Positions 16,511 through 49,906 are shown, numbered from the stretch's first letter. The stretch is 64,000 bases of DNA from Candidatus Iainarchaeum sp. (GCA_026413945.1 JAOAJX010000006.1:20519-84518); one strand, 5' to 3'. The notes: generated from the letters alone by a model not told the origin. Made by a program: numbers and translations.

Positions 16511-17161
16511 ATGGCCAAAAAAAGCGCATCTAAGAAAAAAAGCCCCAATACTTTTATAGGACACTCTTGGCAAAGATTTAGCAAACAGAGCTTGAAGAAA
16601 GAGCTTTTGGCATCAGCAAAGTTTCTAATTTTTTTTCTGATTTCTTTTTCCATTATTTTCATTATTTTTTCTTTTCTGCCAATAGAAATTTTCGAATTTT
16701 TCACAGCAAAGATATCTGCAGCAATTCTCGAAGCCGTGGGCTATTCTACCAAAATAATAACCGATGAACCCGTAAAGATTATTGTGAACTCTAAACACAC
16801 GATTGAGATAAGCTACCTATGCACAGGAATTATTGAAACTATCGTGGTTGTAAGTGCGGTTGCAGCATCACTTGGAATAAGTCTCAAGAAAAGGCTCATT
16901 GGTGCTTTGGCAGGAGCTATTTTTGTGAATGTGCTTAATATATTAAGGATAATTGTAACAATCGTTGCAATATCGAATCTGAAAGATATTGGCTTTGTGG
17001 ATTTTATACATAATGTGCTTTTCAGGGCAACTCTTTTTGTGGGCATCGCTGTTTATTATGCTGTCTGGTTTTTTGCCTCAACAAGAAGCTTTAATCCAAT
17101 AGCACGTTTTAAGCTATGGCTTTTCCCTAAAATAAATTGTAGAAGAAACAAAAAACAATAA
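16511..17161 (+). CDS. Exosortase/archaeosortase family membrane transpeptidase
   Basis: Multi-TM protein with the family catalytic triad in the expected spacing: EISYLCTG (Cys), LNILRI (Arg), FIHNVL (His). Confidence 0.9.
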   Translation: MAKKSASKKKSPNTFIGHSWQRFSKQSLKKELLASAKFLIFFLISFSIIFIIFSFLPIEIFEFFTAKISAAILEAVGYSTKIITDEPVKIIVNSKHTIEISYLCTGIIETIVVVSAVAASLGISLKKRLIGALAGAIFVNVLNILRIIVTIVAISNLKDIGFVDFIHNVLFRATLFVGIAVYYAVWFFASTRSFNPIARFKLWLFPKINCRRNKKQ

Positions 17162-17231: not shown

Positions 17232-20200
17232 ATGTTAACAGATAAGCTCGGCTCTATTTACGCAGGCATAGAGGAGAAATGGTTTGAGCTGCTTAAAGCA
17301 CTGCAGGAAAAAGGCATTCCTGCGTATAGCTATGCTGAGTTCTTAGAAAGCAGGGGCATACCATCTTTGCCTTTTACAATAGCCATCATAATACTCCTTC
17401 TTGTAATTTTGTTTTCATTTTCTTTTGGGGGCGCATACACGGATGTGAGCTTAACTGTTACAATAAGGGATGATCAGGGGCAATCGCTAAGTGATGTCAA
17501 GCTCGAATTATATAATGACGATGGGCAAACACTTAAAAGTGAAACTGTGCAAAGTGGTTACAAGATTGAACTTAAAAGAGTTAAGATTGGCTCAACCATA
17601 ACAGCATCTGCTTCAAAATCTGGTTACAGAAGTGCTTCGGCCGAAAAAGAGATAAATTCCAAAACCGCAACTATAAGCATAACACTTAAGAGAGAGGCAA
17701 GGCTTGTTTCTGCAAAAGTCCGGCTCATCGATGAGCTTACCTCAACCTTGATCAGAGATGCGAGGTGCGAAGTTTCTTTTGATAAGAATACATTAGGCAT
17801 TACTAGAGACTATGATGGCTTGTTTTTGGTAAATGTGCCACAGAAAACAGATGTGGTGCTAAAATGCACAGCTAATGGCTATGAAGACCTTCAGGAAGCA
17901 ATGCGATTTGATGACGGTGAAATCAAAGTAGTAAAGTTGAAGCCAAAATCGGTTGATGTTAATTTAAGCACTCTACTGATAAGCGTATATGACGAGGAAA
18001 CAAAGCAGCTTATAAAAGGGACAAGCATTCGCATTATAAACTCATCAACAGGCGTCACGATAACAGACATTAATTCACAGAGCGGCGATTATACTGAAAA
18101 GATAAAGATAAACACCCAGGTTAGGATAATTGTAGAAAAAGCAGGTTATATGAGCTATGTTGAAGATTTCACCATAAGAACCGCAGAGGTTGTTAAGAAA
18201 ATATACTTAAAAAAAGGCGGTGCACAACTTATAGTAAATGTTACCTCAAAGGATGGCATTGTGCAAGTAAATGCTGATGTTTCGCTTTTTGACTCAAACT
18301 TCCAACTCGTTTCTGCAAAAAAAACTGCCGTTTTAGGGAATGCTGCTTTTGATGGTATTGATCCAAACAGGGATTATTATTTTAATGCATTCAAAGAAGG
18401 TTTTCTGCCGGCTTATGGAAGAATAAGTGCAGGGACCAAAAGCTTGGATATTAAACTTGAAAAGCCAACAGCACAAAATTCTGCATTGGTGAAAATAACA
18501 GTTAGGAACAGCTCAGGCAATATTACAAACAATGCAGCGCTGAAATATTATCGCATTATAAATGCATTCAAGATTCCTCTTGGCATTCCTGTGAGAAAAA
18601 CAGGGCTTACAGGCACAATTATAGAAACCCTTCCAGAGGGTACATTCCTTATAGCTGCCGAGACTGAAGTAGAGTATGGTGAAAAGGAAATAACAGTGAT
18701 GGCAGGCATCGACCAACAGGTTGACATAAACATGTCAAGAAAGCCAAACTTTGTTGAGCTTCGATTAATTGATGGGAATGGAATGCCTTTGAAGGGAGAA
18801 GTTATTGTAAAGAGCAAAAGCGGAAAGACACTTTTTGCTGGAAATGTAAATGGGGGCGCGATTTTTGACAGTGAGATGAATGAAAGCTTTTTGGTGAGCG
18901 TGAAAACGCCTGATGGCAAAACATTTGAGCAGGAAGTAAGGGTTGGCGCAAACAATGTTGCTGAAGTCCGATTAGGGGCTGATAAAAAGGAACTAACAGA
19001 TGGTGTCAAGCCCATAATAGAGTTTGCTGGAGTTTTTGATTCTGGAGGAAAAAGCATTGAAGGAGTTACGGCTGGGGAGTTTGCTTGGCTGCGTTTCAAT
19101 GTCAGTTTTCCCCAGGGTGAGAAAACAGGCATACATATAAGGGTTGGGCCTGATAGCATTGCGTCTGCCGATGCCCAAGAGATTGGAATTTTTGGTTTTG
19201 ATGGAAATGCAAGCAGCTTTGTGTATGGCAAAAGCTATCAGGCACCTTTAGGTGAACAAAAGGATCTTGCAAGCAAAGGTGCAGCGAATGAGAGAAACAA
19301 ATGGCTTGAGCTTTACTTTAACAAAGCACCATCGCAAACAGCAGTAAGCATAAAGGTAAAAACAGATAATATAAGCAGAGAAAAAGACTTTGAAGTACAC
19401 TACAGAGCTTGGAGCGAAATAGGTACAAAAGTATTCAGAGACCCTGCAGACAGCGTGCTTGGAAATGAGAAAACAAGCAATGCAAAGCAAGCGCTTTATG
19501 CTGAAACAAAGATTGCAAGAGTAAAGGTATTTGAAGGAAAAGCAAGCTGCTCTGAAGAACTCTGCATAGCTCTTGCTTTAATAGACTCAAACAATGTGAA
19601 GGTTAAAGAAGATGGTTTCTCTGCAGTTGAGGGTCAAACATATGCTCTAGAAATCTCTGTAAATTCTGGCAAAAAGATGAGTGCTGAAATTGTAGTAAGA
19701 AGCGAAAACTCAAATGTATTGCTTTCAGAGCTTACCGAAGATGTGTTGTCCTTTAGCCCGAAGGGAGAATTTTCAAAGACTGAGTTAAGGGGCTCCTTAA
19801 AACTCGAGGCAAATTCTTCAAAAATTGTAAGGGCTTACTTCAAAGGCAAGTCAGCCGGTACAGCAACGCTTGAGGCCCTTGTTAGGAGCGGAGACCTGAA
19901 CGCAAATAAAAAGATAAGTTTCAATGTAACTGGAAGCAAAGAAATGCTTGCTGAAATTTATAAGAAAGGTGAAATAAAGGCAGGTGAAAAGCTAAGAGTT
20001 ACCTTAAGGGATTCTGAAACAAAGGATCCCATCACAAATGCTTTTGTTTCAATAACAAGGGAAGGTGAGGTGCTTTTAAGCACTACTGGAAACAACACAA
20101 ATGAAAACGGTGCAAATGGCATTTATGTCTTGGGTATAGATAAGCTAAGCCCGGGAAAGTATGTGCTGACAGCTAAGGCAGTTGGTTACAAAGATGCTTC

Positions 20201-23200
20201 TTTCCCAATAGTAATTTCAGCAGAAAAGTTACTTTCAATAGAACCACAATTAGAAATAATGCTAAATAAGGGCGAGAAACAAAGAAGCGCAAAGCTGAAG
20301 CTTACAAATGGCTCATTTGATGTTATAGATAAGCTTGGTTATGAAGTAAAAGGCCTAAGCGGGGATACAAGCGATTTTAACATCATAGTTGCTCTGCCTC
20401 CAAAAATAGATGTCAGCAGAACCATTGATATTGAAGTGGTTGCCATATATAAAGGAGATGTTGAGAAAAGAGCATATGCTGAATTTGAACTTATTGTTAG
20501 TGGATCTGAAAACCCAGTAGTAACTGCAAAAAGCAAAATAAAGGTTTCATACAATAAAGAGATTCCACCAGAGTGCATTGAGATTGACAAAAGTGAGGCT
20601 GAGATGCATTTCTCAGGAATTGCTGGCTCAGCTGAAGTCTTGCCTTTGACAATAACATACAAAAATGAAGCCTTTTGCAATAAGCCGCTTACATTCACGC
20701 CCAAGATGAAAAGCGATGATGATAAGCTTGTGCTAAGTGCACAGCCCTTCACCATAGTGCCTGGTGAAAATAAGACTATTGAGCTGAAAATAACAAACAA
20801 TGCAGAAAGAGTGGGTGTGTTTGAGCAAAAAGTAGAAGCTACGGTATTCCTAGAAGCACCCGAGGTTACGAAAAGCATTAGCTTGGGGATATTATTTACA
20901 GATCCTGCTTATGCGCTCCAGACGAATGATAACATACCGATATTCATGAGTTTTGATGTTGCAAAAGGCAGCTTTAGCGGAACAGCACCTTTGTTTGCGA
21001 AGAACTTTGGCAAAAAGGTTATTGAAAATATAAGGTGGAGCGTTAAGCCACCACAGCAGATTGAAATTTATATAACTTCTACAACCGGCAGTGGTAGTGG
21101 ACAGCCACAGAACATTCCCAACCAGCAAATGCCTGGAATGCAAAATTTCATGCAAGCACCAAACACGCCTTACATACAAGGAAACCCTTCAATGGCCGGA
21201 ACCCAGTTTGCTGTAACCCTTGCTCCAGGCGAAGAAATGGAACCAAAAACAGTATTGGCAACAAGCACTGCAGCTAACCTCACAAGAGGGCCTCACAAGG
21301 GCGAGATAATACTGACTGGAACTGTCGATGGCAAGCAGTTCCAAAAAGTAGTTTCGATATGGGTATTTGTTTCAACAGCACAATGCATAAAAGTTGCCCC
21401 AGCTGATGAGCTTTACTTCTCAAGTGAGGATTCATCTCAGGGTGTAATAGCAAAGAAGATAACAATAAAGAACGAATGCGGAGAAGTAGCCAGGAACTTT
21501 ATCCTAAAGCCCCAAAACCTTGGAAACAACACTTTGAGCATAACACTTCTTGGCAATAAGGACTTTTTGTATCCTGATGAAAGTGCACAAGCACAAATAG
21601 TTCTTACAAAGCGCGGTGATTACTTCAATGCTCAAAGGCCTGATAACATAATTGTTAGTGTTTTCCTAGTAAATAGCCAGAAATTTGTTGATTCTAATCC
21701 CTTGCCTGTGCTTATTGAAGTAGGAAAGAAGCCAGATGTATCTGCTGGTCCAGTTTATAAAGAAGTGCAAATACCTGTTTGCGGCGAAACATCTTCAGTT
21801 AAAAAATCAGTCCAGTTCCCTGTAATGAGTGCAGATATTGGCTGTGATTCTGGCTACTGCGACGCAGTGCAGCTTTCTGGCTATATTGTGGAGCGCATAA
21901 AAGGTGTGATGCAAAAAGTTGACAAAGTGCTGCAGCAAAACGATTTGGTGAGCAGCTATGCTATGTGCAGCCAGTTGGAAGGCTTCTGCAGCTTTTCTGC
22001 AATGGGCATAGTGCCTGAAGTTTACACAGTTTATATGAGAAATGATTCTTTTGGAAAAGAAGTTCTGCAAAGAAGGGTTGAAAGCTCAAAGGAGTTTGCA
22101 ACATTTGTAACAGAATATTTCCAAGGCGATGTTAGTGAGATAGTAAAGAGCGCAACTGGTTTCACAACAAGCAAAATATTCATGACAAAGCCTCTTGTTG
22201 GCTGCGGTCGCTATAAGATATCAATACAAGGCGCTGTGCAGAATATTCAAGGGCGTTTGTCAAGAGAAAACTACTTTATACTTGTAAAAATTGTTGAAGA
22301 TAGGAAAGTTACGCCTGAGTGCATGATGCGTATCCAAAACATTGCAAATTTCTTACCATTAGATCGTGGGCTTGCTGCTGACAAACATTATAATACCTGG
22401 CTCGGAACAACCGAGGGTTTGGATGCCACACGTAAAGCAGCTGAGCTTTTTGCACAAAAGCTTTTTGATGATAAGAGCAGAGTTAATGTTGCATATCACA
22501 CGAATAAGCTTAAAGTTATTCTCGGTGAAATACCTGAAAGCGGCATTGCAAAGATTTCAATGAACCAGGTATCGCAACAGCAGGCACAGCCTGCAACCCT
22601 TGGCGTTACAATAAATAAGCTTTATGTTACGCTTGACGAAAAGATGCAGGATGAAATGATTGCAAAAGCATCTGAAGCGCTTAAGCAACTCATGGAGGGC
22701 TCATTTACTGTTGAGGGCTGCATAACAAAGGATGACTCTGCACTTGTAATATCAAAGCTCGAGCACACCGGCGACCTTGACATTGAGAAAGCATCAGACA
22801 CAATTGAACTTTACTATAGTATGCCTATGTGCGTTGATATGAACGTAGTTAGCACAGTTCTTGAGCCGGTGGTGCTAAAAACAAGCTTTGCTTCGATGAA
22901 AGACAATGAAAAAGCAGGTATTCAGGATGTTTGGATTGAAGTCGATGGCAAGAGAATTTCAGAGTACTCTGAAAGGCAGGAGGGGACGCCAATCACACTT
23001 GAAAAAGAGGGTGGAGAAGAAAGCAAAAAGTTTAAGAAAAGCTTTAAACTATGCGTAAAGGCAAATGATGCTTACTTTGAGCTTGCTGCAGGCAAGAAGA
23101 TTGGTGTGAAAGCCAGAAGCGTTATATTTGCAACTAAGGAGATGCGCTCATGGAAGGAAGTAACACTTGAGCTTTGTGGGATACACCCATATAAGCTAAT

Positions 23201-25310
23201 TCAAAAGATGTCTAATGAAAAAGTAGAGCCTGGCAAAAGCAAGGTTTTTTATGCAACGGTTGGCTGGAAAGGCGAGCCAAATGAGATTGACTTTGCTGCT
23301 ACAACTAGGGGTTTGACTGCAAGCGATCGCTTGAAAAGAGCACAAGAGCTCATGGAAGATGTTGGCAAAGGCGGCCGCATTGATGATTCGCCAATAGGCC
23401 AGAAAATATTGGGCCTGAAAAGGCAGGGTTATGGGCTTTATTTCGGTGCTTGCTTAGCCGTATCTTTCATCTGCCATGTAGTTACAGGTTTAGATCCTCT
23501 TGGCATTAGGGCTCTAATAAATGCCATGATCGACTGTTTGCCTGCAACAATAGGGGGGCTTTTTGGCACTACAAAAGCGGGGCAGGGGTTCCAAAAAGCT
23601 TTAAACGATGCTTGGGAAAAGGTTAAATCAAATCTTAGATGGTTCTATGCGCCATGGAGCAGCGGAAAGGCAACTCCAAATACAGAAGCGGGGCTTTATG
23701 GGCAAGCAATGGATGAATTCTGGGATAATGCAGTGCCTGCTGCAATATTGGGCTTTGAGGCAGATTGGCTTGCAACAGAATTGCGCTCTTATGTTTACTC
23801 AAGAGGTTGGGCAAACAAGACAATAGGTAGCACCGAAGCCATAGATACAATTGCTGAACAGATGGCAAAAGATGCAACACAAAAGTTTACCTCAAAGTAT
23901 CTAAAAGGTGTTACGACGGCAGCATCGGATGATTTTATTAATGCTTTTACCCCTCAGTTACAGAGTTCATTACAAGAAAGCATTTCAAGCACATTAAGAA
24001 AAAACAGCAGCATGACATTTGGAAAACTTATTCAAGATAAAGCGGTTATGCAAAGCATGTGGCAAAAGGCAACGTCGGATGAGAAAATAAAAACGCTTGT
24101 TTACAGCAAAGGGTTTGGCCGCGGAGCAGAAATAGAAAAACTTATTAGCAGCCACGCTGAAGATTTCCTTAGAAAAAGCGTTGATCCTAAAGATATAAAA
24201 GAAATTTTTGGCTCAAGCTCTGTCAGCCAAGAAGATCTCGCAAAGGCAATTGTAGATCAGATAGATAGCGCTGGATACAAAACATATGGAGTTAGGTTAA
24301 CAAAGGATGTGCGAAAAGGTCTAATTAGTTCAGCAAAAAAGGGTATTAGCAAGGGTCATATTTATGCAGATAGTATAGAGGGACAAGTGAATAATGCCTT
24401 AAAACACATACATATGGATAGAAGTAATGAGCTCATGCAAATTTATGGGCAAAATGTACTTGACAATCTTGATGATGTAATGGCCCAACCAAAGCAGCCC
24501 GGGGCTTTTAAGAGAATGATTGAGGCAATGAAAACAAGGAGCTTTTGGGCACGCTTGGCAAAAAGCATTGCCTGTGGCGCTGTTTCAAATGCTGCAGGAT
24601 ATGCTGCTTATTCAAGCCATGTAAAAGGCGGGATTGAAGAACTTATGGACAAGGGGTATATTCCAGAGGCGGGAGTCAGCGTTGGAGATCCTTCAAAGCT
24701 TATCAGCGGCTACACAGGCCCTAAACTTATGAAAAATAGGACTTACAAGATAACAATAAGCAAGGATGATTACGGAAACATAAGCTACAATCTTGAGCTT
24801 GTGGATACAGAAAAAGAAATAGAAGAAATGCGCGCTGCCATAAGCAAAAACCCTTCTGCACTGTGGCGCGAAGATTGTAAAGAGTACCGTGAAAAAGGCC
24901 TTTCTGAAATGGTCGGTTGCTTGGCACCAAAAACAGGTGATTACATAAAGCCAGAAGAGGTTGTCGCTTACTACAAAAACAGCGGCTTTATAAGGGAAGC
25001 TTCAATACAATTCAATGTGCACGAAGCGCTGATAATGGCTGCGCTTACAACAAGATTTGAAAACTTCGAGCCGTGCCCTGTAAACCAGAAATGGTACGAA
25101 GGCGAAGACAGTGAAAGAAAGCTCACCATAAAATGCGTAGCAATGCACATAAGTGAGAAGCTTGCAGCAAATCAGGATAATATAAGGTCTGCATTTGAAG
25201 TCCTTAGCAAAGAAAGGTCTGCTGATAAAGCAAGAGCCTACGCGATGGATGTCGAAGCTAAATACAGGATGTGGAAAACATACGACACATGCAAAGGAGA
25301 AGGGGGCTAA
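17232..25310 (+). CDS. Giant membrane-anchored surface protein A (2692 aa), carboxypeptidase-regulatory-like/Ig repeats, conserved core, C-terminal helical and SLT-like extension
   Basis: N-terminal signal anchor, repeated VxxxD..G.P....V / A.K.GY beta modules, and core motifs KWLELYF, RDPADSVLG, LYAET, GYCDAVQ. Confidence 0.85.
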   Translation: MLTDKLGSIYAGIEEKWFELLKALQEKGIPAYSYAEFLESRGIPSLPFTIAIIILLLVILFSFSFGGAYTDVSLTVTIRDDQGQSLSDVKLELYNDDGQTLKSETVQSGYKIELKRVKIGSTITASASKSGYRSASAEKEINSKTATISITLKREARLVSAKVRLIDELTSTLIRDARCEVSFDKNTLGITRDYDGLFLVNVPQKTDVVLKCTANGYEDLQEAMRFDDGEIKVVKLKPKSVDVNLSTLLISVYDEETKQLIKGTSIRIINSSTGVTITDINSQSGDYTEKIKINTQVRIIVEKAGYMSYVEDFTIRTAEVVKKIYLKKGGAQLIVNVTSKDGIVQVNADVSLFDSNFQLVSAKKTAVLGNAAFDGIDPNRDYYFNAFKEGFLPAYGRISAGTKSLDIKLEKPTAQNSALVKITVRNSSGNITNNAALKYYRIINAFKIPLGIPVRKTGLTGTIIETLPEGTFLIAAETEVEYGEKEITVMAGIDQQVDINMSRKPNFVELRLIDGNGMPLKGEVIVKSKSGKTLFAGNVNGGAIFDSEMNESFLVSVKTPDGKTFEQEVRVGANNVAEVRLGADKKELTDGVKPIIEFAGVFDSGGKSIEGVTAGEFAWLRFNVSFPQGEKTGIHIRVGPDSIASADAQEIGIFGFDGNASSFVYGKSYQAPLGEQKDLASKGAANERNKWLELYFNKAPSQTAVSIKVKTDNISREKDFEVHYRAWSEIGTKVFRDPADSVLGNEKTSNAKQALYAETKIARVKVFEGKASCSEELCIALALIDSNNVKVKEDGFSAVEGQTYALEISVNSGKKMSAEIVVRSENSNVLLSELTEDVLSFSPKGEFSKTELRGSLKLEANSSKIVRAYFKGKSAGTATLEALVRSGDLNANKKISFNVTGSKEMLAEIYKKGEIKAGEKLRVTLRDSETKDPITNAFVSITREGEVLLSTTGNNTNENGANGIYVLGIDKLSPGKYVLTAKAVGYKDASFPIVISAEKLLSIEPQLEIMLNKGEKQRSAKLKLTNGSFDVIDKLGYEVKGLSGDTSDFNIIVALPPKIDVSRTIDIEVVAIYKGDVEKRAYAEFELIVSGSENPVVTAKSKIKVSYNKEIPPECIEIDKSEAEMHFSGIAGSAEVLPLTITYKNEAFCNKPLTFTPKMKSDDDKLVLSAQPFTIVPGENKTIELKITNNAERVGVFEQKVEATVFLEAPEVTKSISLGILFTDPAYALQTNDNIPIFMSFDVAKGSFSGTAPLFAKNFGKKVIENIRWSVKPPQQIEIYITSTTGSGSGQPQNIPNQQMPGMQNFMQAPNTPYIQGNPSMAGTQFAVTLAPGEEMEPKTVLATSTAANLTRGPHKGEIILTGTVDGKQFQKVVSIWVFVSTAQCIKVAPADELYFSSEDSSQGVIAKKITIKNECGEVARNFILKPQNLGNNTLSITLLGNKDFLYPDESAQAQIVLTKRGDYFNAQRPDNIIVSVFLVNSQKFVDSNPLPVLIEVGKKPDVSAGPVYKEVQIPVCGETSSVKKSVQFPVMSADIGCDSGYCDAVQLSGYIVERIKGVMQKVDKVLQQNDLVSSYAMCSQLEGFCSFSAMGIVPEVYTVYMRNDSFGKEVLQRRVESSKEFATFVTEYFQGDVSEIVKSATGFTTSKIFMTKPLVGCGRYKISIQGAVQNIQGRLSRENYFILVKIVEDRKVTPECMMRIQNIANFLPLDRGLAADKHYNTWLGTTEGLDATRKAAELFAQKLFDDKSRVNVAYHTNKLKVILGEIPESGIAKISMNQVSQQQAQPATLGVTINKLYVTLDEKMQDEMIAKASEALKQLMEGSFTVEGCITKDDSALVISKLEHTGDLDIEKASDTIELYYSMPMCVDMNVVSTVLEPVVLKTSFASMKDNEKAGIQDVWIEVDGKRISEYSERQEGTPITLEKEGGEESKKFKKSFKLCVKANDAYFELAAGKKIGVKARSVIFATKEMRSWKEVTLELCGIHPYKLIQKMSNEKVEPGKSKVFYATVGWKGEPNEIDFAATTRGLTASDRLKRAQELMEDVGKGGRIDDSPIGQKILGLKRQGYGLYFGACLAVSFICHVVTGLDPLGIRALINAMIDCLPATIGGLFGTTKAGQGFQKALNDAWEKVKSNLRWFYAPWSSGKATPNTEAGLYGQAMDEFWDNAVPAAILGFEADWLATELRSYVYSRGWANKTIGSTEAIDTIAEQMAKDATQKFTSKYLKGVTTAASDDFINAFTPQLQSSLQESISSTLRKNSSMTFGKLIQDKAVMQSMWQKATSDEKIKTLVYSKGFGRGAEIEKLISSHAEDFLRKSVDPKDIKEIFGSSSVSQEDLAKAIVDQIDSAGYKTYGVRLTKDVRKGLISSAKKGISKGHIYADSIEGQVNNALKHIHMDRSNELMQIYGQNVLDNLDDVMAQPKQPGAFKRMIEAMKTRSFWARLAKSIACGAVSNAAGYAAYSSHVKGGIEELMDKGYIPEAGVSVGDPSKLISGYTGPKLMKNRTYKITISKDDYGNISYNLELVDTEKEIEEMRAAISKNPSALWREDCKEYREKGLSEMVGCLAPKTGDYIKPEEVVAYYKNSGFIREASIQFNVHEALIMAALTTRFENFEPCPVNQKWYEGEDSERKLTIKCVAMHISEKLAANQDNIRSAFEVLSKERSADKARAYAMDVEAKYRMWKTYDTCKGEGG

Positions 25311-25315
25311 TTTAA

Positions 25316-27007
25316 GTGAAAGTCCGTGGTTTTAATCTGTTTACAGCACTACTCGCAATGATAATTGTCGTAACAAGCTCCATGCTTGTGCTAATAATGA
25401 TACAAAATGAAAGAAACGCGAACACCATTGTCGAAAATGCAACAAGTGATGCTAGGCTTGAAGCGGTTATAAGGACAATGCGCACAGATGTGCTCAATTC
25501 TTTCAACCATTATGTTAGGGAAGAAATAGAGTACTACACAAGCATGAATCCCATTCCAATAGAAGATCTCTCTGTTTGGGAGGATTGGGATACACTCATA
25601 AGGTATTTTATACACGGTTACTTTGGACGTAGTGGTTCACCCATGTTTGCATCACAGATAGCAAACAGCATGCCAGAAATGATAAGAAGCTACCGCGAAA
25701 CCCTAACTTATGAAGCACGTTACAAAGTTGAAGTTGTCGGCGACGATGAAAAGTTAAAGGATGCAATACTTGAGCTAATACTTGTATCAGCAGAAGAAGA
25801 TGATTTCATTGAGGTAATTCAATGTGATGGCACACCGCAGGGCTGCCCCATTGGAAGCTTTTATATTAATCTTAGAATAACAAAGCTGAGCAATGAAAAA
25901 TATGAAAGCTTGCCAAGGATTGTGGTGCAAGACCTTGTAACAAAAAAAGAGATTAGGGAAATAATACTTCCAAAGGCAGACCTAAAGATGTATGTCCCAT
26001 CACGGCTTTTTAAGGCAATGGCTTATACGAGATATTTTATGCATACTGACTTAACTAATGTAAATTCTTCTAATGATTATGGTTATTTATCTCCAAGAAT
26101 ACACAATGAGATTGATTCAATGGCTTTAGGCATCTGTGACTATGGATTTTGCAAACCTCGGGAAAATCCATACTTTCCACCAACTGCAAGGTTTATTGAG
26201 GACAAAGGATGTCCCAATAGCGGCAGAAATCAGTTAGATAAAGTAATTGGGAATTTTAGAGGCCATTCTTTTGTCTATAACCCATCAGATGGTGCTGATT
26301 TAAGAGAATCTCTTGAGAAGCTTGTAAAGATGCGCATATGCGATCTTTCTGCAAAGCATGTTGCACCTTTAAGCACAGATAAATTCACAGTTGCGAAGGG
26401 GCCTTCTGTGGAAGGCGTTGATTGCTATGTTACGTTTGATAGGGTTTCAGCAACTGCTACATCTGCGAAAAAAGTAGAATATTCTTTGCCGGGCCTTACT
26501 TTACCAGGCATAATGCCACCCCAAGAGCCAAACAATCCAAGTGCATGTCCCTTCAATTTCAACTTACCACAAAACCGAAATTTGGGGTACTACATAGAAG
26601 GAAGCAAAATTAAGTGGCCGTCAGAGAAAACAATTAGCGTCCATCAAGACGTTTGTAGTGCACTTTTAGCTACTGTGCCAGGCCTTGAACAAAAGCTAAG
26701 GTTTTGTGGTGTTCAAAATTGGAGTTGTTGTGCAGAGATTGCTGAAGCTACCTTTGTAGTTACTTTTATAGAAGGCGATGCAAACTATAAGGTAAACAAG
26801 AACAGGAATGTGAGATTTATGTTCCAGATTCCTGACATGAGCTACACGCCATTTAATCCAAATTACACTTCTGGATCAGTGCTTGGAACGCTTGGTTGTG
26901 CTTTAGAGCATCAGCCGAGATTACAAAGCTGCAACCCAGATCAATGGACTTGCCAAACATATGAGTATCAGGGCAATGTATATGGCTGCTATCCAAAAGT
27001 GCCATAA
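25316..27007 (+). CDS. Large Cys-rich pilin-like protein with class III signal peptide (563 aa)
   Basis: GTG start, MKVRG|FNLFTALLAMIIVVTSSMLVLIM, many Cys residues in the C-terminal two thirds. Confidence 0.75.
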   Translation: MKVRGFNLFTALLAMIIVVTSSMLVLIMIQNERNANTIVENATSDARLEAVIRTMRTDVLNSFNHYVREEIEYYTSMNPIPIEDLSVWEDWDTLIRYFIHGYFGRSGSPMFASQIANSMPEMIRSYRETLTYEARYKVEVVGDDEKLKDAILELILVSAEEDDFIEVIQCDGTPQGCPIGSFYINLRITKLSNEKYESLPRIVVQDLVTKKEIREIILPKADLKMYVPSRLFKAMAYTRYFMHTDLTNVNSSNDYGYLSPRIHNEIDSMALGICDYGFCKPRENPYFPPTARFIEDKGCPNSGRNQLDKVIGNFRGHSFVYNPSDGADLRESLEKLVKMRICDLSAKHVAPLSTDKFTVAKGPSVEGVDCYVTFDRVSATATSAKKVEYSLPGLTLPGIMPPQEPNNPSACPFNFNLPQNRNLGYYIEGSKIKWPSEKTISVHQDVCSALLATVPGLEQKLRFCGVQNWSCCAEIAEATFVVTFIEGDANYKVNKNRNVRFMFQIPDMSYTPFNPNYTSGSVLGTLGCALEHQPRLQSCNPDQWTCQTYEYQGNVYGCYPKVP

Positions 27008-27117
27008 ACAGAATATTAAAGGACATTTTAATGCATTTAAATTAAAGATAAGATTAATAAATCACAAATAACTATATAGATACCAAAAAAGCCATTAAAG
27101 ATAGGCGGTTGGTTTAA

Positions 27118-34437: not shown

Positions 34438-34511
34438 TGCGAATTATAAAAGCTTAGTCAATAAACAAAAAATATATTAATATTAGAGGCGTATTAAAGT
34501 TAGGGATATCT

Positions 34512-42992: not shown

Positions 42993-43015
42993 CGCAATTA
43001 CTAACAGGGATAGTT

Positions 43016-46000
43016 GTGGAAATCGAAGAAATTGAAGATGAGGAAAATATAATCTATAGGATAAAGGAACGTTACATCGCTTTTTGTGAAAAAAACAAAA
43101 TACCAAAAGCACTTCCTATTTTAGTTGCAATAATTCTTATTTTAGCATTAGCTTATATTCTTTTTTTTAGTGCAAATCCGCAGCCGAAGCCAAAAGAATT
43201 TAGCTTAATAGTATATTTTAGAGATGAAAAAGGTGCTCCGGTAAGCGGACTTGATGTTAATGTAACAATAAATGGTGAAAAGACACGCAGAAAAACAGAC
43301 AGCAAAGGAAAAATTTCTATTACCGTGGATGAAAACAGCAATGTAAAGATTTCGTTGAGAGAAACTCTTTACCTTGATGGTGAATGGACTTTCAAAATAA
43401 GCGAGGATACTGAAAGAACAATAACATTAAAGCTAAGGGAAAAGCCACTTGAGAAGATTATAGTTCGCTTTGAAACAAGCAAGGGGTCAACAAAAGGAAA
43501 ATATGTAAAAGTGACGCTTAGCTGCTCAAATAAGGCCATTAATCAATGGGATGAGTTTGATTCGGATAAGGATGGCATTATAGAAATTACATTGCCGCTT
43601 GATTGTGGTGAAGTCAAAGTTGAAAATGCAGAGCTTGAAAACCATTTATTTGAGCGCACATTTAAAAAGGGAAAGGACATTTTTGTGACATTTAAAGAAA
43701 TAGAGATACCCAAGGGAACATTGAGGGTAAAAATAGTAGATGATAAAAAAGAGCTTATACTTAACAAAAACATAACAGTCAGCATTGAAAGGGATGGTGA
43801 AAGAAAAAGCTCGTTTACACAAGGTTATGGAATAGTTGAATTTTCTAATCTTATGCCTGGAAGTTACAATGTTTATGCAGTTGACCCCGAGCAAAGCTAC
43901 TCTGCGTCAAATACAAATGCAATAGTCAAGGCTAATGAAACTACTGAAGTATTTTTGGCTTTGAGCAGAAACATCAGTGCGATGCTTCTCATAAGAACAA
44001 TTGATATGAAAACACTTGGTGCTATCGAAGGCGCAACAGCAAAGGTTATTAAAAATGGCAACACAATGGTCGAAGAGATAACAAAAGAAAATGGCATTGC
44101 TAGGGTACCTCTTTTCGATATGGGTTCTTATGTTATAGTTGTGAAAAGAGATGGTTATTTCCCAAAGAAGATTGACTTTAATGTTACATCAGCAAGCGAA
44201 TCTGTGACTATTGAGCTCGAAAGAATTACGGAAGAAAATATGGGCAGGACTTTTGTAAAAGTTGTTGATGAGGAAGGCATGGCTGTTAAAGACGCAAAAG
44301 TGATTTTCAAATATAAGGAAACTGGCGCAATTGTTGAACTGCAATCAAAACAAAATTACGCGCTTACAGACGAAAATGGCACAGCAGAATTTGTTCTTGG
44401 AGCCATAAATTCTGATGTTTATCCGTTTGCAATCAAGTACCCGGCTTTTGGTGGGTCGCCAGCGCAGGCAAAAAAGATAATTCCTGACGAGAACAATTAC
44501 TTTGAGGTTATCCTTAAGGTTGGTAAAAGCAAAATTAAAGTAATGGCCAAAGATTCCGAGGGAAAGCCTTTGAATGAGGCATACTTTGAAGTTTTCTCAT
44601 CATTTGACCATAATTCAGTAACAAAAGGAAAAATGTTGATAATTGACGGCATGACGGAATATGAAATTAAGGCAGCCCAAAGTGTCTATGTGGTGGTAAG
44701 CAAAGAGGGATATATCAAATATAAAAGCAGAATATTGCAGCTCTGGCCAAATGAGGAATATGAAATAAACGCTGTTTTGCTAAAAGAAGGCGAGGTTGCT
44801 AAGCCAAAAATTGAGTTTTTAGGTATTTTTGATGGAAATCTCGTTGCCTCTGCACTTAAAGCGGGCAGAACTTATGTTGTTAAGTTTAATGCCTATTTTC
44901 CTAAAGGTTCATCAAAGAATGGCTTTCACTTTAGAATTGGTGAAAACCAAGACGCTAACTTAGAACCGGCCTTTATAAAGTTTGTGAATGCAAAAGGTGC
45001 TAAAGTAAAGATTGGGCTCACGTATAGGCCGCCAAAATCAGAGAGCATAGAAGAGCTTGCACCCACAGGAGGGAAATGGGCTTCTATAGAGTGGGATTCA
45101 AATGAAACGGGCACATACGAGTTATATTTTGAAATTAAAATTAAGGAAAATGTGAAACCAAGGACAGTCATATTATTTTATTATAGAAGCTATGCTATTT
45201 TTGATAAGGCTGTGACAAGAGAGCCGTTTGATGAAGAGCTTGGTGAATTACTTAGCACTCAATCTAAAGATGGCCTTTACGCTAAAGCCCACAAGTTACA
45301 ATTTTATGAGGGTTCTGAGAGTGCCTGCAAAGAGCTATTTTGCATTTCTGGCTACTGGCTATATGACGCGCAAGAAGACATTTTCCTCAAGGAACCTTAT
45401 TCTGTGATGCTATTTGGTGACTATAACTTTTTGTTCGATATAATTAACAATTCGCAAAATGATTACAACAAAATAATTTTGATAGTAAAGAATACTATAA
45501 ACAACAGGCAAGATAATGCTTTGGCTTTTGAAAGCTTGGTTATTTCAATACCAGCTGGTCAAAAAGAGCTTAAGCCAAAAGATAACGAATTTAAGGAAGA
45601 AGTAATGCCTTTTTCATATAGTGAGCAGCTAAAAGGCAATGTGAAGTTCAAAGGCAGGATAGAAATAACTACGAACATAGCTGTTGAAATTGTTGCTGAT
45701 CGCTACGTTGTTTTTTCAAAAAGCATTCCTGTAAAAGTATACTCTGCTGGAAAGCTCGATGTTAACATTCAACCGAATGCCTTTTTGCCATTTGCAAGCC
45801 ATGACTTAAAAATAATGGTTAGAGATCAAAGCAAAAGCCCGATTAAAGGTGCTTTGGTTACTGTTCGAAGAACACACGATGATGGTACCGATGAGACCTT
45901 GCAAGAAATCACAGATAACAATGGGCTTGTTTCATTCAAAATAAAGGAGTCGTTTCCAAAAACCAAAATAGAGGTTCTCGTTGAAAAAATGGGCTATGCG

Positions 46001-49000
46001 CCTTTCAGATGGGAAAAAAGTGTTGATGGAAATATTGCGAAAATAACACCTGAAAGCATAAGTGTTAATCTCAATACTGATTCGAAAACCCAGGAAAAAA
46101 TAATTTTGAGTATTGAAAACAGAGTCGGCTCAGATTTGTTGGTTAAAAGTGCAAGGTTTACAGGGGGCTTCAATGGCATACTTGACGAAGCCTCGATGAA
46201 CGCCAACGCCACAACAATTGTTGGAAAAACTATAAAAACCAAAGACCAGCTTGACTTTGCCTTAAATTTTTTGCTTTCGCAAAATGCAGAAGATTTGATG
46301 CAAAGCAACGTAGATCTTAATGGCGCAATCGAGATAATAGTTTCAGTGCCAAGATTTGGAGCTGATTATGCCTTAGTGGTCCCTTTTAAAGCAAAAGTCT
46401 CTCTTGGTGGGCTCCCGGAAAATGCGCCTTGTATTTCTCTCTCTGGACCAAATGTGCCTGACTGGAGTGTTGCCACAATAAATGACACTGCAAGGACAGA
46501 AGTAAAAATATCAAATATTTGCATAAGCAACGGGAAGCCCATTGACCTTGAAAATTTGCAAGCAAAGCTTACATGGGCTTCAGGATCAAAAAAAGCAGGA
46601 AGTATTGAAATAAGCATAAATTCTCCTGATGGCTCAACTGTAACTAAAATACTCAAGCCTGGCATATGGACAAAATTATTTGATGGTTTTAAAAACGAGT
46701 TGAATTCTGGAACATATAATGCTGTTATAACATTCAAGCCTCTGCCAGACTATGCTGGAGAAACAGCAAGCTTTACAATTGAAATAGACGGCCAGACAAA
46801 AACAGACAAAGGCCTCGCTTTTGTAGGTTCTGATTCTAAAATAGAGGCGAAAATACTAATAATTGATCTCAAAGGATGCATAAAGTATCCAAAAGAAAAA
46901 ATAACCATAAAGCCAAACGAGAAAGAAGCAAAAATAAAAATAGATGCAAATGGCTGCAACACGAACATATCTGTATGGCTCTGTAAGGATGATCCAAAGT
47001 GCCGCGGTGGTACCGAAGAAGGCGGCATAACTTTGATACCTTATGAAGAGCTTAAGTTTACAAAAACAGAAACATCAAAAAGTGTTACAGTATATAGGGA
47101 GCAGATTGCTGGCCAATATGGCATAACAGTCCATGCAAAAGCACCGGATATGGATTATCAGCAAATAGGTACAATAGATGTTGTTGTTGAGCCAACAGAA
47201 AGAGAATACTTTAGCATGAGCAGATATGAGTTTACGCTAACTAATTCAACAAACTGGAAAGATTCCACAGACTTGATAAATAAAATGTGGGTTGAAGATG
47301 TAAACATAACTGCAAAGCTCTGCACAGCTTGCCAAAATCCGAAAAAGCTGCCAGATTATTGCATAATGAACAGAGCTCTTGAAAAATCAACATTGGACAA
47401 GCCAGACTGGTGGGTAAATGTAGCAATATCATTAGGTGTAGGATTAACAGCTGGTGCTGGATGTGCTATTGCTGCTGCCGAAGCAAAAATTGTAGACCCG
47501 ACAGCTTTGATAATAATAGCTGGTGCTTGCTTCCTTGGCTCAGCTCTAGCAACATATTTTACAATTTCTGGTGCAGAATGCGATGTTCAAATGGCCACAT
47601 ATCCTTTTATGGACTATGTTGTAAACTTACCTGACGATTTGAAAGGCCTTAAAGTAATGGGCAAACCTTATGACGTAAATTTAGGAAGTGATGAAAGAAG
47701 CAGCTATAAGAAAAGAGAGCAGATATTGCCAATAAGCTTCGAAAATAAGGGCAAAGATTCTTCGGACAAAAGTGGTTATGGCATACTAGAAATAAAAGCA
47801 ATCGAACACATTCATGGAGATCCAACACATACAAATCCTAAGATGGAAAGAAACAAAGCTGACTTTGGATTATTCAACGTTCCAGACACTGAAACTAAAG
47901 AATACTCGCAAAAAATCCACTTAAGGTTTATCACAAATGCAAACTTTAGCGAAAAGCTTACAAAGGCAGGGGCAGAAACAAAATCATGCAGCATCGGGAC
48001 AAAAAGCGGTTTTACTGGTGATGGGCTTGTTCCAAAAATAAAGCTCGATTGGAGTTGGAAAACAATTGAATGGAATTTTTGCGATGCTGACAATGAAAAC
48101 GCAGCATACTGCGATGCGGTGCAGCATAGCATAGCCCTTACAAAAAGGTTAAAAATGCTTGATGACTTTTTCAAGGCAAACAATTACTCATTTGAATGCC
48201 CTGCTCACCCTAAGAATAAGGCAACACAAAGTATAATTGATAGCACTAATGAAAAGGAATCTTCAAGGTCTGTCAGTATTGGAAAAGTTGGCGTTTCAAA
48301 AGTTGAGTATTCTGCAAACAATATCAGTTTAAGCGTTGTTTTAAGAGCAATGGTAGAAAACAAAACTGCAGATGAGCAAAGCACAAAGATAAAATTCTTG
48401 CTTAAAAACCAAGCTCTTGCAAAAGAGTGCGAAAAAGAAACTATTGTTGGCTCGAATTCGAGTGTAACGGTTGAGTGCTTATTTGAGAATTTGGTTGCTA
48501 ATGATGACCCGTATTTTGGTTCTGCTGCTGCTGTTGATTCTAGCAAAGGAAATGCTGATAAAAAAGCAGTTACTGTTGCTTTTGTACTCCAGAGCAAGAA
48601 TAGCGATTGTTGGTTGCCCTATTCCACTAGAAAGATTGAAGGTAAACCTGCTTTGCTTTATTTCATAGACAGAAATATAAGAAACTGGGGCAACTATGTA
48701 AATGTAAAAGAGATAAATTGGCCAGCTGGCTGGCCTGGCTCTAATGCCCAGGAAAAGATAGCATTCCTTGAGAAGCTTATTGAGTTCGATACATTGTTAG
48801 TAAGGGACGCATATCCTAATAGTTTGAAAAGCGATTTTGTAGAGCATTACACAAAGGAGACCTTTATGGATGTGCCAACATGGTTTAGTGGAAGCTCCGG
48901 CTTTAAAGAGTATTTCTTAGATAAAGACGCTATCGAATTTGAGACAGGTGACAGCACAAAGAAGCTTCCGGGGCCTGGCAAGTACAGAATTTTCCTTGAA

Positions 49001-49906
49001 ATTAACTTCAATAACAACTTTGCATTCTTCAGAGAAGGGAAAACAAACGCAAAAGTAAGAGTAAAGTATTCAAAAATATCCAGCCCAGAACCTGACTCCT
49101 TATTCTACTACTGGCCTATTGACGGCGAAGTTGGGCTTAAAACAGGGCGTAACGGGTATGGAAGCACATATGAGAATATCAATAAACCAATTATCATTGG
49201 ATCTTATGGTGGGAGAGAGCTTAAAACAGATTCGAAGAGCAGTAATGCTCTCGTGAAAGTTTCTACAAATATTGTCGATAAATTTGAGTATGTTAATACA
49301 GATCCTAAGACAAGAGGCAACCTCTTAAGCGCAAAAATTTCTGAAAATGGGCTTTCCATTAATTTTTCTCCTAACACGGCATCTTTTGTAATAATGAAGG
49401 TTTCAAACAATGAAGAAAACCCAATATATGCAAAATATCAACTCTTTAGTGGTGGGGCAAAGATCAATTGCGGTGACACATTAGCATATTGGGCTGGAAT
49501 TGGGAATTGCACTTCATTTTCTGGTGAGCCAATTAAAGAGATTAAAAACCAGCCTGATGAACATTTCGGGGAAAGCACTTATGGTTTACAGTGGCCAAAC
49601 AATGGCAAAGCAAGTAGCGTTTACCTAAGCACTATTTTATTTGTACCATCTAATAAGGAGTTTGAATTGCGTTCAGCATCTAGAAATGTCATTTTCTTGG
49701 ACAAGGAGCTTAGCCAAAATGCATCTTACAACCTGAAATCAACTCATAGCCATGCGGTACGCTCAATAGACGAACTATTAAACATGATGAAGCAGGGGCT
49801 TCTTTGTGTTTCTGCTGAAAGTAATGAGATGCAAATATGGTGGAACCCTGAAAGCACTGATTACAGCACAGCAGCTGAAATACTTTCAAAAAGGGGCTGT
49901 AGCTAG
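43016..49906 (+). CDS. Giant membrane-anchored surface protein D (2296 aa)
   Basis: Same architecture: KWASIEW, REPFDEELG, LYAKA, AYCDAVQ, YYWPIDGEVG, LCV...WWNP, and an internal hydrophobic hairpin. Confidence 0.85.
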   Translation: MEIEEIEDEENIIYRIKERYIAFCEKNKIPKALPILVAIILILALAYILFFSANPQPKPKEFSLIVYFRDEKGAPVSGLDVNVTINGEKTRRKTDSKGKISITVDENSNVKISLRETLYLDGEWTFKISEDTERTITLKLREKPLEKIIVRFETSKGSTKGKYVKVTLSCSNKAINQWDEFDSDKDGIIEITLPLDCGEVKVENAELENHLFERTFKKGKDIFVTFKEIEIPKGTLRVKIVDDKKELILNKNITVSIERDGERKSSFTQGYGIVEFSNLMPGSYNVYAVDPEQSYSASNTNAIVKANETTEVFLALSRNISAMLLIRTIDMKTLGAIEGATAKVIKNGNTMVEEITKENGIARVPLFDMGSYVIVVKRDGYFPKKIDFNVTSASESVTIELERITEENMGRTFVKVVDEEGMAVKDAKVIFKYKETGAIVELQSKQNYALTDENGTAEFVLGAINSDVYPFAIKYPAFGGSPAQAKKIIPDENNYFEVILKVGKSKIKVMAKDSEGKPLNEAYFEVFSSFDHNSVTKGKMLIIDGMTEYEIKAAQSVYVVVSKEGYIKYKSRILQLWPNEEYEINAVLLKEGEVAKPKIEFLGIFDGNLVASALKAGRTYVVKFNAYFPKGSSKNGFHFRIGENQDANLEPAFIKFVNAKGAKVKIGLTYRPPKSESIEELAPTGGKWASIEWDSNETGTYELYFEIKIKENVKPRTVILFYYRSYAIFDKAVTREPFDEELGELLSTQSKDGLYAKAHKLQFYEGSESACKELFCISGYWLYDAQEDIFLKEPYSVMLFGDYNFLFDIINNSQNDYNKIILIVKNTINNRQDNALAFESLVISIPAGQKELKPKDNEFKEEVMPFSYSEQLKGNVKFKGRIEITTNIAVEIVADRYVVFSKSIPVKVYSAGKLDVNIQPNAFLPFASHDLKIMVRDQSKSPIKGALVTVRRTHDDGTDETLQEITDNNGLVSFKIKESFPKTKIEVLVEKMGYAPFRWEKSVDGNIAKITPESISVNLNTDSKTQEKIILSIENRVGSDLLVKSARFTGGFNGILDEASMNANATTIVGKTIKTKDQLDFALNFLLSQNAEDLMQSNVDLNGAIEIIVSVPRFGADYALVVPFKAKVSLGGLPENAPCISLSGPNVPDWSVATINDTARTEVKISNICISNGKPIDLENLQAKLTWASGSKKAGSIEISINSPDGSTVTKILKPGIWTKLFDGFKNELNSGTYNAVITFKPLPDYAGETASFTIEIDGQTKTDKGLAFVGSDSKIEAKILIIDLKGCIKYPKEKITIKPNEKEAKIKIDANGCNTNISVWLCKDDPKCRGGTEEGGITLIPYEELKFTKTETSKSVTVYREQIAGQYGITVHAKAPDMDYQQIGTIDVVVEPTEREYFSMSRYEFTLTNSTNWKDSTDLINKMWVEDVNITAKLCTACQNPKKLPDYCIMNRALEKSTLDKPDWWVNVAISLGVGLTAGAGCAIAAAEAKIVDPTALIIIAGACFLGSALATYFTISGAECDVQMATYPFMDYVVNLPDDLKGLKVMGKPYDVNLGSDERSSYKKREQILPISFENKGKDSSDKSGYGILEIKAIEHIHGDPTHTNPKMERNKADFGLFNVPDTETKEYSQKIHLRFITNANFSEKLTKAGAETKSCSIGTKSGFTGDGLVPKIKLDWSWKTIEWNFCDADNENAAYCDAVQHSIALTKRLKMLDDFFKANNYSFECPAHPKNKATQSIIDSTNEKESSRSVSIGKVGVSKVEYSANNISLSVVLRAMVENKTADEQSTKIKFLLKNQALAKECEKETIVGSNSSVTVECLFENLVANDDPYFGSAAAVDSSKGNADKKAVTVAFVLQSKNSDCWLPYSTRKIEGKPALLYFIDRNIRNWGNYVNVKEINWPAGWPGSNAQEKIAFLEKLIEFDTLLVRDAYPNSLKSDFVEHYTKETFMDVPTWFSGSSGFKEYFLDKDAIEFETGDSTKKLPGPGKYRIFLEINFNNNFAFFREGKTNAKVRVKYSKISSPEPDSLFYYWPIDGEVGLKTGRNGYGSTYENINKPIIIGSYGGRELKTDSKSSNALVKVSTNIVDKFEYVNTDPKTRGNLLSAKISENGLSINFSPNTASFVIMKVSNNEENPIYAKYQLFSGGAKINCGDTLAYWAGIGNCTSFSGEPIKEIKNQPDEHFGESTYGLQWPNNGKASSVYLSTILFVPSNKEFELRSASRNVIFLDKELSQNASYNLKSTHSHAVRSIDELLNMMKQGLLCVSAESNEMQIWWNPESTDYSTAAEILSKRGCS

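Follow-up and report, generated by a model that had tools for sequence, protein, structure and literature searches.

A conserved quartet of ancient giant paralogues, putative surface proteins, in Iainarchaeota

Introduction

Why does an archaeal genome of 0.95 Mb carry, side by side, four giant genes that take up 3.2% of its length? The genes, named here A, B, C and D, were found in a stretch of 64,000 nucleotides (nt) of Candidatus Iainarchaeum, a DPANN archaeon (GCA_026413945.1, JAOAJX010000006.1:20519-84518; the window is this whole stretch), and together account for 30,771 nt of an assembly of 948,649 bp (21 contigs, 92% complete). The sequencing run containing this DNA is labelled as a hot-springs metagenome. 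The G+C content varies between 37 and 42% along the window, without a compositional break. To our knowledge, Iainarchaeota (Diapherotrites) have no cultured member, and the quartet gives a handle on whether these archaea are free-living or host-dependent.

A first reading of the DNA alone, hereafter the original prediction, had described the four products as an unnamed family with an ordered set of conserved motifs, and had proposed that they are non-redundant subunits of a hetero-oligomeric stalk or spike. The analysis reported here leads us to favour, by a modest balance of probability, the view that A to D are four ancient, non-redundant paralogues of a giant surface-protein family restricted to Iainarchaeota, working in one co-functioning apparatus of which A would be the effector arm.

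Results

Homology and shared architecture of the four giants

The open reading frames (ORFs) of the four giants have exactly the limits that had been proposed (Table 1). Using loose regular expressions, the motifs G.(S/T)Y, KW..(L/M/I).(W/F), R(D/E)P.(D/E)..LG, LYA and (Y/F)CD(A/G).Q were each found once per giant and in an identical order, and I.F.G...AG...F and C-x4-C correspond to invariant columns of the four-way alignment of the central domain, here called the core. The motif YYMP/YYWP..G.VG was matched in C and D, and its form in B, YMSFDGEIG, was recognised by visual inspection of the protein sequence; B, C and D all have the terminal C(V/I)...WN. The motifs as first written gave no match in the giants when their spacing was applied strictly and matched in relaxed form, so that their dots are not to be read as exact spacings.

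BLASTP aligned B with C at E = 3e-84 over 1036 amino acids (aa), C with D at 6e-81 over 1490 aa and again at 8e-48 over the last 754 aa, and B with D at 2e-43. The similarity of A to the other three was confined to the core, with E values from 7e-11 to 6e-17, and the four-way core alignment exhibited 28 invariant columns. Profiles of the orthologous groups showed that residues 1 to ~1040 are common to all four giants, and that residues 1 to ~1300, the YCD.Q region and the terminal domain are common to B, C and D. A matches the YCD.Q profile marginally (8.5e-4) and is otherwise unique from residue ~1040 to residue 2692. With a sequence similarity far beyond chance, the four giants are homologous, and the ordered motif set of the original prediction holds in all of them.

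As had also been noticed, the four genes share no obvious identity at the DNA level. The sole direct repeat of at least 40 nt between positions 17232 and 49906 is a tandem array of 138-bp units inside C, which encodes a Cys-rich unit of 46 aa (containing GYFCQGTVLHWKDSCGNTGVERDCADAGGICQNGNCV) within the variable insert of this protein. The last two copies are 94% alike in a gapless register and 99% alike according to Tandem Repeats Finder. This array is a recent local expansion within an otherwise ancient gene.

At the N-terminus, all four types in all genomes carry a leader of ~45 residues with the consensus LEDKYY..LD.LD.KGIPVYK..DPIDK.VPSF, shortened in B and D of the window. A strong hydrophobic helix, conserved in the orthologues, follows directly. 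It is the one strong hydrophobic segment of each giant (Kyte-Doolittle 2.8-3.6), lying at about residues 27-64, where an anchor had been anticipated, and its position suggests an N-terminal signal-anchor in the cell's own membrane. The density of N-glycosylation sequons was tried and rejected; by this measure the giants are no different from cytoplasmic proteins.

Beyond the anchor, Pfam matched CarboxypepD_reg, Big_1, SpaA and MG-type beta-sandwich repeats across the four giants, which agrees with the carboxypeptidase-regulatory-like repeats and immunoglobulin (Ig)-like stalk domains foreseen from the sequence. With an iterated profile, the core was seen in every type to be preceded by 5-6 prealbumin/CarboxypepD_reg-like units and followed by a single one (residues ~930-1030); the number of prealbumin-like units per giant is 5-7. 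The chain may therefore be pictured as a leader, a signal-anchor and then an outward string of beta-sandwiches, made of about six prealbumin-like units, the core, one further prealbumin-like unit and Ig-like domains. A tandem beta-sandwich stalk and a predicted surface anchor, two of the hallmarks of fibrillar adhesins, are both present.

A double beta-sandwich core outside the named families

Residues 575-928 of D were modelled with an alignment of 64 sequences. The model is all-beta and consists of two sandwiches, with a mean predicted local distance difference test score (pLDDT) of 92.3. The first sandwich exhibits a CnaA/CnaB-like fold and the second is macroglobulin/Ig-like. Foldseek returned only generic tandem-Ig adhesins, with a template-modelling (TM) score of ~0.27. 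At the sequence level, the core has no match in Pfam or NCBIfam, and the search of its profile (A2) against PDB sequences returned nothing significant. In the same way, no family of the CnaA/CnaB clan (DUF11/CLIPPER included) was among the Pfam matches of the full giants at E<=0.01, and none of the S-layer family models of Pfam and NCBIfam was matched by the giants. Judged from these searches, the core belongs to no named Pfam, NCBIfam or PDB family, and the match to a well-described family, for instance an S-layer protein, that would have spoken against an unnamed family did not appear.

The residues K113, W114, R150, R161, P163, D165, Y181, C197 and C202 (numbering of the first sequence of the model alignment) are near-invariant and may form a cross-link, such as an isopeptide bond of the CnaA/CnaB type, or a binding site.

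Distribution and age of the quartet

The core profile matched 40 of 41 relatives, including each of the 23 of high quality, and covered 28 of 29 families; the one genome without a match is 74% complete. Sampled across the phylum, 172 of 201 genomes were matched, among them 56 of the 58 of high quality. The window genome has exactly four places with a core. Genomes usually have 4-6 adjacent matches in open frames of 2200-3400 aa, and some have 5-8, as in G027, whose fifth copy lies far from the cluster. Sister orders have 1-3 detectable matches, fewer than the order of the window, and the three copies that were fetched from them scored best with the A profile, so that the A type appears to be the ancestral one. 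Of 1.84 billion representative proteins, only 661 were matched by the core profile (E<=0.001). In the 150 of these that were listed, the core lies near residue 600, or else the entry is shorter and likely partial, with another offset. A word-based homologue search returned only 8 proteins, called 'hypothetical protein' where they were named.

The clusters of 15 further genomes, from at least 13 families, were compared with the window. The order A-E-B-C-D, where E is a smaller Cys-rich protein, and the ORF sizes are kept in all of them: 2630-3444 aa for A, ~400-590 for E, 2357-2669 for B, 2150-3253 for C and 2249-2691 for D. In all 64 core-bearing giants the core starts between residues 559 and 648. 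A maximum-likelihood tree of the core (quick search; 64 rows, 303 columns, 16 genomes, at least 13 families) was then examined; two ORFs of at least 2000 aa in these loci lack the core and were excluded from it. The copies clustered by gene position and not by genome, with clade supports of 100, 94 and 57 for positions 1, 2 and 3, respectively; position 4 is paraphyletic, at unsupported nodes. Mapped on the tree, the position labels need 3 changes, the minimum possible, compared to a mean of 35.6 after shuffling, and none of 200 shuffles was as low. Because the core copies group by position and not by genome, the tree places the duplications before the radiation of the order: they are older than it, as had been suspected when the copies were described as old and retained rather than recent and antigenic. 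A grouping of the paralogues by genome, which would have indicated recent expansion, did not occur among the 64 proteins.

Just upstream of the quartet in G037 and G022 lie ORFs of 2058 and 2398 aa, respectively, in which the core is absent. They are a different kind of giant protein.

These data bear on a simpler explanation, that the giants are four independent fibrillar adhesins with different ligands, held in one operon for co-regulation and without mutual assembly. Their anchor, long beta-sandwich stalk and distinct distal ends are indeed the architecture of fibrillar adhesins, A differs from B, C and D across its entire distal half, and the extra copies of some genomes (5-8 matches), with the distant fifth copy of G027, would also be natural for adhesins. 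However, the numbers of copies and of repeats in adhesin repertoires usually differ between relatives, whereas here the groups, their order and their register are fixed over at least 13 families, and B, C and D retain the same terminal module instead of diversifying. We therefore regard this explanation as unlikely.

Murein hydrolase domains at the C-terminus of A in other lineages

The A-specific halves of 15 orthologues were scanned for enzyme domains. Murein hydrolases were found at the extreme C-terminus of two of them, the longest: Amidase_2 (1.3e-28) in G027, and NlpC/P60, Amidase_3 (1.2e-19) and Glucosaminidase (7e-10) in G030. Of 171 genomes of the order, 5 contain Amidase_2, which gave 7 matches in all, 4 of them within frames of 2321-3447 aa. 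SLT was detected in 55 genomes, the giant frames bearing SLT including those of 2731, 2904, 2735, 3466, 2922 and 2321 aa. Five hydrolase-bearing giants (G023, G029, G045, G165 and G115) proved to be of the A type, scoring 954-2350 with the A profile compared to at most 335 with the profiles of B, C and D. At least four kinds of murein-cleaving domain thus occur at the same end of A, in at least seven genomes of six families. For B, C and D, 48 segments from the middle and 47 from the C-terminus were scanned as well, and none showed an enzyme domain. Since the envelopes of this archaeal group contain no murein, the distal end of A must meet bacterial walls in the hydrolase-bearing lineages.

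SLT was matched in 4 of 18 A-type terminal segments, and A of the window is not among them: it has no Pfam SLT match with the ES, GLMQ and AYNGG motifs. That its terminal domain might be a degenerate SLT was suggested by a MAFFT alignment, but the idea gained no support from the searches and was dropped.

The A-specific half of G027 contains, besides Amidase_2, a cupredoxin/plastocyanin-like domain (residues 873-953 of the segment). Of the 47 C-terminal segments of the other three types, one likewise matched Cupredoxin_1.

C-terminal modules and internal hydrophobic hairpins

The terminal modules of B, C and D are homologous, and A has its own region of ~1600 aa. Residues 1525-2296 of D, modelled with 47 sequences (pLDDT 88.3; predicted TM score, pTM, 0.76), comprise a Cys-knotted YCDAVQ region, a helical hairpin, an Fn3/Ig domain and an alpha/beta terminal domain of ~430 aa ending with C..WWNP..C. 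The sharing of Y(M/W)P.DG.VG and of the terminal C(V/I)...WN by B, C and D, already recognised in the original prediction, falls within this homology, the first motif of B being the one assigned by eye. Searches of the 772-residue D model with Foldseek (PDB), VIA wide and BFVD matched only the Fn3/Ig part or gave a TM score of at most 0.15. PDB sequence searches with profiles A3 and A8 returned nothing significant, and a search of the ESM Atlas with the C-terminal half of A gave no usable match.

An internal hydrophobic stretch of ~45 residues, located ~200 residues before the YCD motif, was found in 14 of 16 D-type orthologues. Its first part is rich in Gly and Ala and its second strongly hydrophobic, as in a hairpin. 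The C types have two weaker Gly-rich segments on either side of the variable Cys-rich insert, the B types essentially none (1 of 16), and 6 of 16 A types a weak hydrophobic segment near residue 2070. If the D hairpin lies in the cell's own membrane, the ectodomain (residues 60-1465) would be an arch anchored at both ends, with its midpoint at about residue 760, about six domains per arm and the core at the apex. If it enters the membrane of a partner, it would be fusion-peptide-like. The idea of a four-helix bundle between the giants was addressed by a complex prediction with the four YCD.Q/helix regions, which gave a score of 0.00, in a run without controls and with the partner's own fold uncertain, and which carries no weight for or against a complex.

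Genes around the quartet

The genes next to the quartet, and the coordinates of its parts, are given in Table 1.

Table 1. Quartet genes, their domains and the adjacent genes in the window (nt positions, + strand as indicated)
Feature	Position	Strand	Length	Remarks
Giant A	17232..25310	+	2692 aa	Leader and transmembrane anchor, prealbumin-like repeats, core, YCDAVQ
Giant A, C-terminal half				Residues ~1040-2692; A type only, from group profiles
E	25316..27007	+	563 aa	Large Cys-rich type IV pilin-like protein, between A and B
Giant B	27118..34437	+	2439 aa	
Giant C	34512..42992	+	2826 aa	88 Cys overall
Giant C, variable Cys-rich insert				Between the two Gly-rich hydrophobic segments of C
Giant D	43016..49906	+	2296 aa	GTG start
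Core of A	18960..19997	+		Residues ~577-922; KW, RDP.D..LG, LYA, C-x4-C; predicted double beta-sandwich
Core of B	28804..29832	+		Residues ~563-905
Core of C	36312..37346	+		Residues ~601-945
Core of D	44738..45799	+		Residues 575-928; modelled stretch
Internal Gly/Ala-rich hydrophobic hairpin of D	47414..47545	+		Residues ~1467-1510
C-terminal module of D	47588..49903	+		Residues 1525-2296
Module of C homologous to C-terminal module of D	40803-42989	+		
Module of B homologous to C-terminal module of D	32035-34434	+		
YCD.Q region of A	21705..22061	+		
YCD.Q region of B	32323-32667	+		
YCD.Q region of C	41055-41387	+		
YCD.Q region of D	47957-48289	+		
138-bp tandem repeat in C	39819..40226	+		3 copies; Cys-rich unit of the insert
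Exosortase/archaeosortase-family membrane protein	16511..17161	+	216 aa	Directly 5' of A
Pilin-like protein	15895..16497	+	200 aa	N-terminus MMRMNSKGQAFSTFQLLISAIIALAIL; relatives in 4 other clusters
Pilin-like protein	15372..15818	+	148 aa	
TadC/FlaJ-type membrane platform	13009..15366	+	785 aa	Pfam T2SSF
FlaI/TadA-type secretion ATPase	10717..12996	+	759 aa	

E begins with VKVRG↓FNLFTALLAMIIVV (the arrow marks the predicted cleavage position), a signal of class III type. By the rule of a short charged leader, a small residue at position -1 and then a hydrophobic helix, pilin-type N-termini were assigned to E (VKVRG↓FNLFTAL) and to the 200-aa ORF (NSKGQ↓AFSTFQLL), and the orthologues of E exhibit (K/R)(G/A)↓F(T/N)LFTAL. 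Relatives of E were located by tblastn immediately 3' of A in 11 of the 15 other genomes (12 of 16 with the window). They were undetected in G027, G030, G035 and G037, the first two of which are the genomes whose A extension bears hydrolases.

Of the other clusters, 11 have a full upstream stretch, and in 5 of these, orthologues of the FlaI/TadC pair (60-71% identity) are found no more than 9.5 kb from A, usually in divergent orientation; including the window, this makes 6 of 12 assessable genomes. For the TadC/FlaJ-type platform, 5 other genomes have an orthologue next to the cluster, and the nearest FlaI paralogue within the window genome is 41% identical. This genome of 0.95 Mb makes an unusually heavy investment in such machinery: it has 3 genes for A24 prepilin peptidases and 7 loci for FlaI/PilB-type ATPases. 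Since it holds seven such ATPases, some adjacency is expected by chance, and in view of these loci and the three peptidases the linkage of FlaI/TadC to the quartet is real but not exclusive.

This neighbourhood raises the question of whether the giants themselves, or A at least, are pilin-like subunits, processed by a prepilin peptidase and then, together with E and the small pilins, incorporated in a type IV filament or attached to it by the adjacent FlaI/TadC machinery. The sequence [KR]G↓[IVL]P precedes the anchor in all 15 readable N-termini of the 16 A types; E and the 200-aa ORF start as canonical pilins do, the ATPase and platform stand beside the cluster in 6 of 12 genomes, and three A24 peptidase genes are available. 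Prepilin peptidases, however, require a small residue (G/A/S) at position -1, which is V, I or F in the C and D types and N in most B types, so that the four giants as a group do not carry a class III signal. Moreover, the leader of ~40-45 residues is long for such a signal, the giants have no match to a pilin family, and we know of no precedent for a filament with subunits of 250-300 kDa. We thus give this possibility very little weight.

The ORF directly upstream of A matches Pfam Exosortase_EpsH and, with 35.1 bits (cut-off 23), the TIGR04178 signature; in 8 of the 15 other genomes (9 of 16 with the window), tblastn located a relative 5' of A. The archaeosortase family has been described as processing S-layer proteins in other archaea (PMC12617251). 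One could see the giants as structural components of the envelope, forming a canopy or layer of stalks in place of the S-layer or in support of it, and having no role in contact with other cells. Besides the adjacent archaeosortase-family gene, the near-universal presence of the quartet, its cost of 3.2% of the genome and its fixed geometry would fit such a layer. It is, on the other hand, hard to reconcile with the murein hydrolases on the A types of at least seven genomes, useless in the archaeal own envelope, and with the giants having neither an S-layer family match nor a C-terminal sorting signal: none of the 64 giants ends with a terminal hydrophobic helix, and the motif, transmembrane segment and basic tail of archaeosortase substrates are absent. 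The window also contains a better S-layer candidate at 2-4294, with a C-terminal transmembrane helix and a basic tail. An envelope layer of this kind appears to us highly improbable.

The candidate at 2-4294 (+) is open at its 5' end, codes for at least 1430 aa without a family match and ends with LPSLPEDVVFLVVYLSLLLTTITTTRTFLSRNSKK, a hydrophobic helix and a basic tail; by these features it is a better candidate for the archaeosortase substrate, as well as for the S-layer, than the giants. A relative with 59% identity lies beside the cluster in G003. In G008 an ORF of 1434 aa is located just upstream of the cluster, and tblastn did not match it to the 2-4294 ORF. At 4336-5874 (+), a protein of 512 aa with an anchor at its N-terminus contains a weak CarboxypepD_reg/PEGA-like unit. 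Similar in its N-terminal part to residues 50-156 of A (E = 5e-4), it has the appearance of a small protein related to the stalk of the giants.

Downstream of D, two ORFs without a family match, of 501 aa at 51189-52694 (-) and of 216 aa at 52819-53469 (+), have relatives 3' of D in 7 and 10, respectively, of the 15 other clusters. As these relatives occupy the same place, the conserved neighbourhood extends beyond D.

Discussion

We propose that the four giants together would form a single surface apparatus contacting other cells. A would serve as the effector arm, its distal end meeting the wall of the partner, which in other lineages would be bacterial murein, and B, C and D could be structural or binding arms. 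E, the small pilins, the FlaI/TadC pair and the archaeosortase-like protein may help to assemble or to anchor the apparatus. A fixed register and a strict co-inheritance make a hetero-oligomer attractive, in which the stalks would lie laterally in register; we prefer this arrangement to other forms of the apparatus but consider it a tentative one, somewhat less probable than not. Of what the original prediction had deduced on this point, the old and non-redundant paralogues stand, and the hetero-oligomer does not reach the same standing, its support consisting of co-occurrence, gene order and the shared register.

Several points weigh against the joint apparatus with A as its effector arm. Co-occurrence and synteny are equally expected for independent adhesins in one operon. 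The FlaI/TadC linkage is not universal, and the window genome has seven FlaI-like ATPase loci. As for A, most of its forms carry no hydrolase; in the unbiased sample, 2 of 16 do. The last 369 aa of the window A have no Pfam match even at E<=1, and its terminal-domain profile searched against the PDB gave a best E of 0.45, to an unrelated protein, with no lytic transglycosylase chain; the window genome contains no SLT or Amidase_2 match, and hhalign of non-SLT with canonical SLT termini of A gave a probability of 4.3%. No known adhesive (ligand-binding) domain was found, the C-terminal modules having no Pfam or PDB sequence match, and the terminal domain of B, C and D may yet have a known fold, the fold searches having used the whole module. 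Finally, Iainarchaeota are described in PMC10936187 as possibly free-living.

A bolder version of contact can also be imagined, in which the quartet would be a cell-breaching machine and the Iainarchaeales, instead of living freely, would be episymbionts or predators, in many lineages of bacteria. A would reach the partner first and open its murein where an amidase, SLT or NlpC/P60 domain is present. The Gly/Ala-rich hairpins of C and D, fusion-peptide-like and placed beside a helical hairpin, would then insert in the partner membrane and help to build a cytoplasmic bridge to it, such as is seen in other DPANN. We hold this version to be improbable.

The quartet is a vertically inherited module of ~30 kb, near-ubiquitous in reasonably complete genomes of the order and costing ~3% of a 1-Mb genome, and this makes it a strong candidate for the main interface of the organism with the outside. 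The independent addition, in several lineages, of different murein hydrolases to the same tip of A points to bacterial walls as the target, so that the A-type hydrolases are a concrete lead to the partners of these archaea. Three unnamed conserved modules, the N-terminal leader, the double-sandwich core and the stretch from YCD.Q to the terminal domain, could become profiles for annotation, and the four orthologous groups could be used as markers of the order.

In literature searches on Iainarchaeota, Diapherotrites and DPANN giant proteins, pili and adhesins (supplements excluded), no description of the family was found. The closest functional class is that of the fibrillar adhesins of bacteria and archaea, whose stalks are built of CnaA/CnaB-like, CLIPPER/DUF11, Big and macroglobulin-type domains. 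In contrast to these, the core of the giants occurs once per protein, at a fixed place and not as a repeat, and has no DUF11/CLIPPER or Cna match in Pfam; the repeat number is constant across the order, and the four orthologous paralogues stand in one order. In the archaeal type IV pilus loci surveyed by Makarova et al. 2016 (PMC4858521), large Cys-rich putative adhesins or S-layer-like proteins are described beside FlaI/TadC-type genes and minor pilins, as here. Those proteins, as presented there, are far smaller, single-copy and of other families, e.g. DUF2341, and that survey has 0 mentions of DPANN.

A nearer likeness is offered by the SPEARE proteins of Nanohaloarchaeota, which PMC6642349 reports as giant, mostly extracytoplasmic, membrane-anchored DPANN proteins thought to interact with the host. 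There, four genes make up 4% of one genome, compared to 3.2% here, and FlaI, FlaJ and pilin proteins are co-expressed (PMC6642349). According to the same report, SPEARE carry serine protease, laminin-G and cytoplasmic restriction-endonuclease domains and are mostly anchored near the C-terminus. None of the corresponding domains (serine protease, laminin-G, type III restriction-enzyme) was found in A to D with Pfam at E<=0.01, the anchor of the giants is N-terminal, and there is no sign of common ancestry.

Large murein-transglycosylase proteins of Woesearchaeota and Pacearchaeota have been proposed to mediate attachment to bacterial walls (PMC8204110; PMC10936187). Some A types resemble them in ending with SLT, amidase, NlpC/P60 or glucosaminidase domains. 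Unlike in those proteins, the hydrolases are here lineage-specific additions at the tip of one paralogue, the window A having none, and the scaffold that carries them, with its leader, core and YCD.Q module, is that of a different, unnamed family.

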